Positions 24,001 through 27,000 of a DNA stretch of 30,633 nt are shown one piece after another (position 1 is the stretch's first letter; each line of letters begins with the position of its first letter). Made by a program: the position numbers. The DNA comes from a virus (Duplodnaviria; Heunggongvirae; Uroviricota; Caudoviricetes). The DNA is taken from IMG/VR virus record IMGVR_UViG_3300029888_000014, positions 1 to 30,633 of that record; one strand, written 5' to 3'.

Positions 24001-27000
24001 TGGTGGATTCTCACGCTTTACCTGTTCATAAAAGCGCACGGCTTTAACCAGTCCTTCTGATATCACAGGGACTGGCGGGGTAGTGAATAAGGCCTGAATC
24101 TCATAGCCCGGCCTGTCGTTGCACCCCTCTTTTGTCGGTACATATTTCCAGTCACCAACCCACATCTTCTCCTGAAAGTCCGTAACGCCTTTTTTCACGT
24201 AGCGATATCGCCATGCAACTGGTTTTGCCTGCCCTGCCGTTTCATGCCCTTCCTGATAATTAATCTCGCTCATTCATCGCCCCACTCATCACAATATGCT
24301 TCGACCGGAGTTTTTCCTGCTTCGTAGTCATCACGCCAGGCTTCAGCATCAGCAGCACTTCCACCACGTAACTCTGCATAGTCCATTAACAGTTCATGCC
24401 ATTCTTCAAAACTGACGTTGTATTTAGTTGAACCAAAATCAGCCATTTTGTTCTTCCTCTTCGTCTTTTATTTCGTGATATGAGTAATTGCAGTAGTTAA
24501 AGAAAATTTCTTTTGCTTCGTCATGAATTTCATCAGGTGTTGCGTCATCGTCCACTTCGAATACATCCTCAAAATCTCCACCAGCTATTCCCGTTTCAAT
24601 AATTATTTTGAACTTTCGCATTTCACTACCACCCTTTCGGGTGGCCTCCTGCTGTTCTGAGGGTGCAGAAATCCCTCCGGTTAAGGATTAAATTTTTAAC
24701 AGTGCTAAATTTAATTATTCAGTTCTGGATTTTGTCACCCTGCGTATCCGTGCTTTCGCATTACGCTCAATCTGAATTAGCTTTTCTATATTTTTTCGCC
24801 TTTCCTGTTCCTCCTGGCGCAATAGTTTTACATCATCTGCCAGTCTGGTTTCTCTTTTCGCCACAGAGAGCATCCAGTCAAATGGCTCCACAACTGCACC
24901 GCAGATTTTACAGCGGACCTGACGCTCTTTTTCGTCAACCCGGACAGAAGCGTGATGGCAGTATGGTCTTTCCTATGGCTCATAAAGAAAATTAACCTGA
25001 TTACGTGGGTCATCCTCTTTTACCGGAAATAAAACAATATTACTTAACTCATCTTCTGGTTTTATTTCCATGCTCCTCTCCTTTGATGCGAATGCCAGCG
25101 GCAATTGAAGCCTGATAGCTAATTTCACTTACAGTACCGCCTCCTGAAAATTACCCTGATAGAAAGCCAGTACACGCTGCATAGCTTCGCTCTTCCGGCA
25201 CTCGCGACAGATTATATTCAGGCGCCTGTCGTAGCGGCGTATTTCTCCGTCTGGTAATGACCAGATAAGGTCCGGATCAACCGCAGATGGTTTCTTCGGC
25301 TTTGCCCTTGAGAGCTTTTTACGGGCATTTTGCCAGTCCTTACGCGCCTGTTCAGACGGGAATAACCCGTAACCAGAGTTGTATACATCGCCACTGGCAA
25401 CCAGCTCTCTGGCCAGAACGCTCATCAGATATCTTGTTGCCCCAGTTTTAGTTTCCAGTTGTCGTAACGTCTCGCGCCCACTCTGGCGTACGAGTTCAAC
25501 AACCTGCCCTTTAATTTTTTCCCGCTCTTCTTGTGTAAAAACTTTTGCCACAAGCCCTCCTGAAAATTACCTCATGACCAGAAATTAACACTTACCCCCT
25601 GAAGCCCGGCGGAATTTCGTTATCCGGTTCAGAAATATGATTCACACAACGCTGGTTGTTCGTGCCGCTTACCGGGAGCAACCAGGGGTTCTCAAAATTC
25701 CGGTCCGGTCCAAAAAACGTCGTCGCTCGCTGAACAAATTCCGTTCCCGTTTTCCCGGTAGCCGCCAAGTATCTTGCGTAACGCCTCACGCCATCCAGCA
25801 TGGCCTCTGGTGGCACCCCCTCGCGTAATCTGGCCTTCCAGGCACTGAAAGCGGATTTCTTCGGGTTTGCTCCGGCACGCAACGGGTACTCCCGCCAGAC
25901 CTGTTCGAACACATCCGGATAATCCACTCGTCCCACAGACTGCCCGGTGCTTTCCGGGACTACCCGATCGGCTTCCCGCTGAATGGCGGAATCGGCTTCA
26001 GGCTGCTGCAGTTGGTGTGATTGCTCCGGCCTTGCGGTCATCACCTGCTGCACAGCGCCCGAATCGGCTTTCAGCGCATACGCTGAATCGGCTTCCGGTG
26101 TCGTGCCTGCTGGCTGACCAGGATTGACGGTCTGAACATCCCCTGCCTGGTTCGTGGCGTTTTTTACGCCATGAACCATAGTGTTTTGATCTTCTTGATC
26201 TGTATCTTTATCTGTATCTTTATCTGTCGTGACTCGTCGTGACATGTGCGTGACATTTCGTGACGCGCCGTGACAATCGCCATTTTGTTCCCGCTTTCTT
26301 TCCCTCTCTCGCTGCGCCCTCTTGCGCTCTGCAGGAGATTTTGCGGTTTGCGAAATATTGCCGTTGTCCTCTTTAAGCACCTGGCGTTTTTCCCATCCAG
26401 TGATTAAATCACCATCAAGTACCCGCCCCTGCATCGTCTGCAAAATTGAATCAATTACCTCTTCTGTCACGTCGAGCGCACTTGCCAAATCTTCTGTCGT
26501 GACATCAATGTGACCTCGCGTGACATTTCGTGACGCGCTCACCAGGAGGTGGATATACACTGCCATCACTGTTGCAATTGGCTGCCCTGACACCCTGGCA
26601 ATTGTTCGCCACTTAGGGTCATTTGGCATGTCATGCCATAATCTGAGCCAGGCGTTAGCCATACTCACCTCTTCTGATACCGAATCTTTTTACTCACGAG
26701 TTGCCGGAAGCGATTCGATATGGCTATTATCACTCAATGCACTGCCACAGCATTTCCTGCCGGGCCACCACGGTTCATCTGATTGAAACCGGCGATTGCC
26801 ACTGCGACAAAATCATCGGCGTCTCTCACCAGTCGCTCCCGCGTCTCCACCAGCTCCCGAAAATAAGCTGAACTGTGGCTACGCATTCTGGCCACCAGCA
26901 AAGGTGGCATTGCCTTTTCGATCGCTGGTAACAACGCCTGAATTTTTTCAACTGCATCAGGGGTGTCTTTCTCTACCCAGCGGAAAATTTTCTGGGTATT

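Follow-up and report, generated by a model that had tools for sequence, protein, structure and literature searches.

A probable inherited loss-of-function amber allele of a conserved nin-region accessory gene in an Escherichia coli lambdoid prophage

The window analysed here, a stretch of 30,633 nt, is a lambdoid prophage of E. coli. Its first part contains the genes for tape measure, tail, capsid/protease, portal and terminase, followed by the lysis genes and a nanS-like gene. The middle part contains the AsxR and STnc100 sRNAs, three tRNAs, Q, RusA, a DUF968/HNH gene and hokD with sok. The last part contains small nin-like genes, the gene under study, DUF977, and O-like replication, YdaT/cII-like, cro-like and cI-like genes. 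The gene under study carries an amber codon at codon 33 (TAG33), and it is the only one of the 30 minus-strand genes of the window with an internal stop. The other genes of the window look intact. The closest complete RefSeq E. coli match to the whole window has 76% coverage and 93.5% identity.

Translation of the minus strand from ATG 25071 to TAA 24715 gives a single frame of 118 codons plus TAA with one internal stop. This confirms the original prediction that one continuous frame is broken only by the TAG at 24973-24975. The full reading of the ORF is MEIKPEDELSNIVLFPVKEDDPRNQVNFLYEP, the amber TAG, ERPYCHHASVRVDEKERQVRCKICGAVVEPFDWMLSVAKRETRLADDVKLLRQEEQERRKNIEKLIQIERNAKARIRRVTKSRTE and the terminal TAA, and the features of the locus are collected in Table 1. 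The claim that the downstream part has no nearby alternative start also holds. After TAG33 the frame offers its next starts at codon 61 (GTG) and codon 67 (ATG), both past the C-x-H...C-x-x-C motif, and the GGAG that precedes ATG67 by 12 nt is poorly spaced for a Shine-Dalgarno sequence. By our own arithmetic, 118 codons of random sequence are expected to contain about 5.5 stops, and the probability of one stop or none is about 0.03 per frame. Chance occurrence of such a frame is mildly unusual for any one frame and not rare in a 30-kb window. A 110-aa antisense ORF on the plus strand (24663-24995) was dismissed as the reverse strand of a gene under strong purifying selection.

Table 1. Coordinates of the disrupted gene and its elements in the window
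Feature	Coordinates	Strand	Remarks
Whole disrupted ORF	24715..25071	-	118 codons plus TAA; orthologue of intact WP_000403777.1; PHROG 1621
Amber TAG, codon 33	24973..24975	-	Ancestral codon TCG (Ser); mutated base at + strand 24974
32-codon translatable remnant	24976..25071	-	MEIKPEDELSNIVLFPVKEDDPRNQVNFLYEP; has ExELxNVVxFP, without zinc ribbon or helix
Shine-Dalgarno-like purine run AAGGAGAGGAG	25073..25083	-	Ends 1 nt before ATG 25071; from sequence
Codons 38-57, putative zinc-binding C-x-H...C-x-x-C ribbon	24901..24960	-	3' of the stop, untranslated in this allele
Codons 63-117, one long basic helix (predicted)	24721..24885	-	Untranslated in the TAG33 allele
Mobile gene cassette, approximate limits	24667..25099	-	RBS, ORF and ~50-nt trailer; blastn against L005, alignment

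The 357-nt ORF was found in 1,701 records from 1,679 of the 5,426 complete E. coli genomes, with 90-99.7% identity over at least 80% of its length. No match at 100% identity was present among these 5,426 genomes, and 16 complete genomes carry intact alleles at 99.7% identity, that is, with one mismatch in 357 nt relative to the window ORF. Four relatives were fetched for comparison (Ecol_881, E19, CLSC36 and phage vB_EcoS-640R1), and codon 33 is TCG (Ser) in all of them. An intact 118-aa hypothetical protein is annotated over these 357 nt in Ecol_881, E19 and CLSC36, and in the record of phage vB_EcoS-640R1 the frame is annotated from an earlier start (locus 1623-2036). The ORF of Ecol_881 and that of the window are one base apart, at codon 33, and the window ORF has no other lesion. 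The base at plus-strand position 24974 is T in the window and G in the relatives, corresponding to C->A on the coding strand and a G:C->T:A transversion. Codon 33 was also surveyed with a 33-mer centred on it, for which megablast seeds only when the central base agrees. In complete E. coli genomes the TCG version had 1,397 exact matches and the TAG version was present in 8 genomes, about 1,500 genomes carrying the site. The dN/dS of intact E. coli alleles is about 0.06, and these alleles are thus under strong purifying selection. The ORF is considered a real gene because of its homology, its match to PHROG 1621 and this dN/dS value; the openness of the frame alone is insufficient.

Intact genes encoding WP_000403777.1 or WP_000403785.1 occur in lambdoid and Rac-like prophages of E. 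coli and in phages such as vB_EcoS-640R1. The window copy resembles them in locus, neighbours, start, stop and Shine-Dalgarno sequence, with 95-99.7% nucleotide identity. In contrast to them, it has TAG in place of TCG at codon 33, which would leave residues 1-32 only. All four fetched relatives share the flanks of the window, with DUF977 upstream and DUF7167, a 58-aa ORF and hokD downstream. Of the four, Ecol_881 alone has an intact copy of a neighbouring 171-aa ORF, which has become a pseudogene by frameshift in E19 and CLSC36 and is shorter in the phage. At position 23601, a 1-nt difference in an A-run was observed between the window and three relatives.

The intact allele matches PHROG 1621 over residues 1-117 (E 1.4e-55), a family labelled 'hypothetical protein'. 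An uninterrupted frame of about 114-132 codons is typical of the PHROG 1621/WP_000403777 family, and the window copy with its TAG33 does not have one. A protein search detected full-length relatives of 114-132 aa in Escherichia, Shigella, Salmonella, Klebsiella and Kluyvera, and also in Yokenella, Serratia, Erwinia, Pluralibacter and Yersinia. In two family alignments, with 21 and 30 members from about 10 genera, C38, H40, C54 and C57 are invariant and the C-terminal LRxEExxRRxNIEKLIQIERNAKARIR is near-invariant. The N-terminal motif ExELxNVVxFP (residues 6-16) is also conserved in the family, and in every genus the N-terminal motif, the ribbon and the helix are retained within one polypeptide. 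The strongly conserved residues, which are the ribbon ligands and the C-terminal helix, are all encoded 3' of TAG33. Residue 33 itself locates in a variable, gap-prone linker. The original prediction had proposed to align the orthologues at the TAG position, and the result supports its pseudogene reading: in addition to the TCG of the four fetched relatives, a sense codon is present there in every aligned orthologue, among them 20 orthologues from about 10 genera.

The structure of the intact protein was predicted by AlphaFold2 with the 30-sequence alignment. The model has a mean pLDDT of 76.7 and a low-confidence N-terminus, and shows two beta-hairpins at about residues 37-61 (strands 43-46 and 51-54) and a helix at residues 63-117 with pLDDT >90. 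Pfam Zn_Ribbon_TF (PF08271) aligned with residues 36-73 at 21.5 bits (E 1.7e-4), under its 29-bit gathering threshold. The likeness to this TFIIB-type zinc ribbon consists of a small two-hairpin ribbon with four metal ligands, but the first knuckle of the phage family is C-x-H rather than C-x-x-C. When the model was compared with the PDB by Foldseek, the best match was 1pft (E 0.26), and in the PDB together with the BFVD viral structures nothing was found below E 0.1, the similarity to the TFIIB ribbon being weak. The resemblance is at the level of the fold only and implies no role in transcription. A profile search of PDB sequences with the intact protein returned nothing at E <=1, and PADLOC and NCBIfam gave no matches for the protein or its neighbours. 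The zinc-ribbon/coiled-coil character that had been read from the DNA is supported by the sub-threshold Zn_Ribbon_TF match, the four invariant ligands and the modelled hairpins and helix. The intact protein would be a small, probably oligomeric zinc-ribbon/long-helix protein with nucleic acid or a host protein as its binding partner.

Distant orthologues in Klebsiella, Serratia and Yersinia are located in the nin region, between YbcO/RusA/NinG/NinH and the Q antiterminator, and often share 4-nt overlaps with their neighbours. This places the gene among the delayed-early accessory genes of the P_R operon. It acts as a cassette recurring in otherwise unlike prophages. Homology with the prophage of strain OkiPb01701 extends from about 25 nt before the ATG to about 50 nt past the TAA, and many E. 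coli and phage matches span the query from about 150 to about 580, consistent with the cassette limits in Table 1. In some phages and prophages, residues 2-118 make up the C-terminus of an Ea22-like protein of 200 aa (P0004, P0008). Ea22 proteins are described as having a coiled coil followed by C-terminal domains that can be exchanged (PMC7093339). The fused forms of the Ead/Ea22-like type (PF13935) carry the whole PHROG 1621 module, which fits this description. PF13935 matches only the fused proteins P0004 and P0040, via their N-terminal parts, and no match to PF13935 Ead_Ea22 at E <=0.1 was obtained with the stand-alone protein. Unlike Ea22, the stand-alone gene lies in the P_R/nin operon rather than the exo-xis region. 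The PHROG 1621 module is untreated in the Ea22 papers examined, and nothing relevant was found in the literature on DUF977 in prophages.

The amber allele is also present outside the window. Two separate assemblies (L006 and L007) contain an ORF identical to that of the window, including the TAG, within a region of 100% identity at 23602-28349 (4.7 kb). The differences between the window and these two assemblies cluster only past 28350, which marks a mosaic boundary. Gene calls for precisely this 32-aa product exist on about 130 public contigs, which come from several sequencing centres and include those of E. coli HVH 2 and HVH 13; 23 of the 24 contigs inspected for it have one common neighbourhood. 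A 51-aa version with a GTG start is called on 68 contigs, and a 58-aa C-terminal fragment on 12 contigs, for example in DEC10B.

In eight complete OkiPb genomes TAG33 is found in another prophage context, and PGAP (NCBI) labels the gene there as a pseudogene with 'internal stop' (for example ACZ5IA_RS07950 in strain OkiPb01701). ACZ5IA_RS07950 has the same TAG33, and its first 110 nt are the same as in the window ORF, with the remainder about 4% different. The Shine-Dalgarno run AAGGAGAGGAG is kept in the alignment of the OkiPb copy of the module. In contrast to the window copy, ACZ5IA_RS07950 lies in the other prophage neighbourhood and has a second amber codon at codon 86 (CAG->TAG) and the changes A41D and A105V. 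The OkiPb copy is thus further decayed, and such extra changes would be expected once constraint was lost after the first stop. TAG33 of the window and TAG33 of OkiPb may be identical by descent or may come from recurrent mutation. TAG33 is a real, inherited change that has spread over many E. coli assemblies, carried by the 4.7-kb immunity/replication block as well as by the cassette.

Other broken alleles were also found. P0032 and P0076 have frameshifts, P0050 (36 Shigella sonnei contigs) and P0110 have foreign junctions, and P0041 is a recombinant with DUF977. These scattered breaks resemble the ordinary decay of prophage accessory genes, with a small possibility that inactivation is favoured.

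Judged from the sequence comparisons, TAG33 is very probably an inherited amber mutation, produced by ordinary prophage decay, that inactivates a conserved nin-region accessory gene. The term 'recent nonsense pseudogene' in the original prediction holds for the pseudogene, given the TCG of the orthologues and the one-base change, but 'recent' needs to be qualified, since about 130 contigs and the identical 4.7-kb block of two other assemblies show that the allele has already spread. One G:C->T:A transversion at plus-strand position 24974 would have changed Ser33 from TCG to TAG. Such a transversion is the classic product of 8-oxoguanine, and a change of this type fits spontaneous mutation. Ribosomes would initiate at ATG 25071 behind a strong Shine-Dalgarno sequence and stop after 32 residues. 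The product would be a short peptide, predicted to be disordered, which ends in Glu-Pro and has neither the zinc ribbon nor the conserved basic helix, the parts of the family on which purifying selection acts. Full-length protein of 13.7 kDa would be made only via rare near-cognate read-through, and basal read-through of UAG is low in E. coli. Weak internal initiation at ATG67 is conceivable and would give the conserved helix alone. The expected consequence is loss of function. The 32-aa peptide is presumably inert; it keeps the motif of residues 6-16 and could retain some activity.

The next gene downstream is DUF7167 (ATG 24621, with its own Shine-Dalgarno sequence, 94 nt past the TAA). Because DUF7167 has its own Shine-Dalgarno sequence, its translation should not depend on coupling to the disrupted gene. 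Rho-dependent polarity across the 258 nt left untranslated would be possible in principle, and N-type antitermination, if it acts on the operon, would counter it.

The amber codon might alternatively be a selected state, which either silences a protein harmful to the lysogen or serves as a leaky Glu-Pro-UAG-G throttle, and this is unlikely. Selection for truncation would mean that the full-length protein imposes a cost on the lysogen or is toxic to it and that the allele reflects adaptive domestication rather than neutral decay. The several independent breaks (TAG33 in two prophage contexts, TAG86, the frameshifts and the foreign junctions) and the fairly wide spread of TAG33 are in line with it. 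However, intact alleles are far commoner in complete genomes (about 1,400 versus 8) and are under strong purifying selection, the scattered disruptions look like neutral decay of prophage accessory genes, and PADLOC and NCBIfam have no matches. Adaptive truncation is considered unlikely.

A gene kept functional by a suppressor tRNA or by programmed read-through, with TAG as a throttle on expression, is very improbable. Both stops of the OkiPb allele are amber, and the Glu-Pro-UAG-G context may terminate poorly. Poor termination at a single Pro before the stop would be an extension of the Pro-Pro case. The precedent is that C-terminal Pro-Pro impairs termination (PMC3834316). Against suppression, the three tRNAs of the window are Arg-UCU, Arg-UCG and Met/Ile-CAU, and no suppressor tRNA with a CUA anticodon was found within the 30,633 nt. 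TAG reassignment is rejected because TAG is the normal terminator of two other genes of the window, those for the Rz-like spanin and Q. TAG33 is not a conserved recoding site either, because nearly all orthologues have no stop there; the distant ones never do, and of about 1,500 complete genomes with the site, 8 have TAG.

Suppression by the host was examined with 33-mers of suppressor tRNAs. The supE-type tRNA-Gln(CUA) 33-mer was found in 157 of the 5,426 genomes. Of the roughly 85 that were inspected, ETEC1738 is the only one that is not a K-12-type laboratory strain, and none is an OkiPb strain. The supF-type tRNA-Tyr(CUA) 33-mer was found in one laboratory strain among the 5,426 genomes. 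The supE query was validated by its recovery of C600, DH5alpha, JM109, XL1-Blue, HB101 and others. Because supE/supF-type alleles hardly occur outside laboratory K-12 strains, suppression by natural hosts is very unlikely. The proposal in the original prediction that the gene is expressed only with an amber suppressor is not supported, as the window has no CUA tRNA and supE/supF-type alleles among the 5,426 genomes are essentially a feature of laboratory K-12.

That the 32-aa N-terminal peptide, or a C-terminal fragment initiated at M67, is functional in this lineage has a very low probability. The peptide retains ExELxNVVxFP, and ATG67, with GGAG 12 nt upstream, would give the conserved helix. 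However, conservation as a 32-aa product is seen in no orthologue lineage, the motif, ribbon and helix always occur in one polypeptide, and M67 has a poor Shine-Dalgarno spacing. In OkiPb a second stop is present at codon 86, so the helix is not maintained there. The other option of the original prediction, that the 32-residue peptide is the real product, is refuted by the test which that prediction itself had named, since no orthologue family ends at this position and the peptide cannot be the native product when the conserved part of the protein is essentially all encoded 3' of the stop.

A sequencing or assembly error at 24974 in an otherwise intact gene, which had been named as an escape route, agrees with the single-base difference from intact alleles and with the A-run difference from three relatives at 23601, but is very unlikely because the same base is present in independent assemblies (L006/L007, the eight complete OkiPb genomes and the ~130 contigs with the 32-aa product) and the change is a substitution outside any homopolymer.

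With TAG33 read as an inherited nonsense allele, the appropriate annotation for the locus is a pseudogene with an internal stop, which PGAP already gives to the same allele, and not a 32-aa gene, a 58-aa gene or a recoding site. Nonsense pseudogenes are a known kind of feature, and the finding matters little beyond annotation. Its by-product is the description of a widespread family of the lambdoid nin region in Enterobacterales, and natural nonsense alleles such as TAG33 might be used as ready-made knock-outs for probing the function of this family.

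The copy of the amber-broken gene in a different prophage, that of E. coli OkiPb01701, has two in-frame stops, at codons 33 and 86, and each of them is amber. This copy also carries A41D and A105V, and the gene upstream of it is a truncated pseudogene too. The 33-mer of a supE-type tRNA-Gln(CUA), used as the amber-suppressor query, is present in E. coli ETEC1738 (NZ_CP122768.1, 5.58 Mb, pig). Of the about 85 carriers that were inspected, this strain alone is apparently a natural isolate; all of the remaining ones were K-12-type laboratory strains.

In the leader of the DUF7167 gene, the next gene downstream, a hairpin (6-bp stem, GAAA tetraloop) separates a consensus SD sequence from the start codon, in the order AGGAGG-CCACCC-GAAA-GGGTGG-TAGTGAA-ATG. 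The distance from SD to ATG is 23 nt when the leader is unfolded, and would be about 7 nt with the hairpin formed. In other alleles the stem is CCGCCC...GGGCGG, a compensatory change of A-U to G-C. Because no T-run follows the stem on its 3' side, a terminator was rejected. The arrangement is similar to that of T4 gene 38, which has a "split ribosome-binding site".

Features in the window and in the OkiPb01701 contig (L005)
Feature	Position	Strand	Remark
Hairpin and SD leader of DUF7167 gene	24622-24660	minus	upstream of ATG 24621
O-like replication gene	25592-26668
hokD-type toxin ORF	23312-23524
sok antitoxin RNA	23462-23636		full-length Rfam match
Three tRNAs	19071-19320		Met/Ile-CAU, Arg-UCG, Arg-UCU
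STnc100 sRNA	18786-18994	minus	Rfam
AsxR, "anti-stx2" sRNA	18730-18782	plus	Rfam, score exactly equal to gathering score
nanS-like ORF	16607-18577		656 aa
Second prophage copy of amber-broken gene	L005:2424-2780		E. coli OkiPb01701

Two length differences from related sequences were observed. The central part of the replication initiator gene (about 26000) is shorter in the window by an in-frame segment of 24 nt that the E. coli relative Ecol_881 has, close to short tandem repeats with periods of 6-12 at 26193-26275; the difference may be iteron or linker copy-number variation. Inside the sok match (about 23601), the window has one A fewer than the related contigs L001, L006 and L007; this reflects a homopolymer error or else a genuine indel in the hok/sok leader. 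The late region (18730-19320) has a Stx-phage-like layout but is without stx. Downstream of Q, the three tRNAs are followed by STnc100 and AsxR, and then by the nanS-like ORF.

In three family members from the protein search (P0004, P0008 and P0040), the entire zinc-ribbon/helix module is joined, from residue 2 exactly, behind Ead/Ea22-like N-terminal coiled-coil domains. Therefore, one cassette has two uses: it stands alone as a gene of the nin region, and it supplies the C-terminal domain of Ea22-like proteins.
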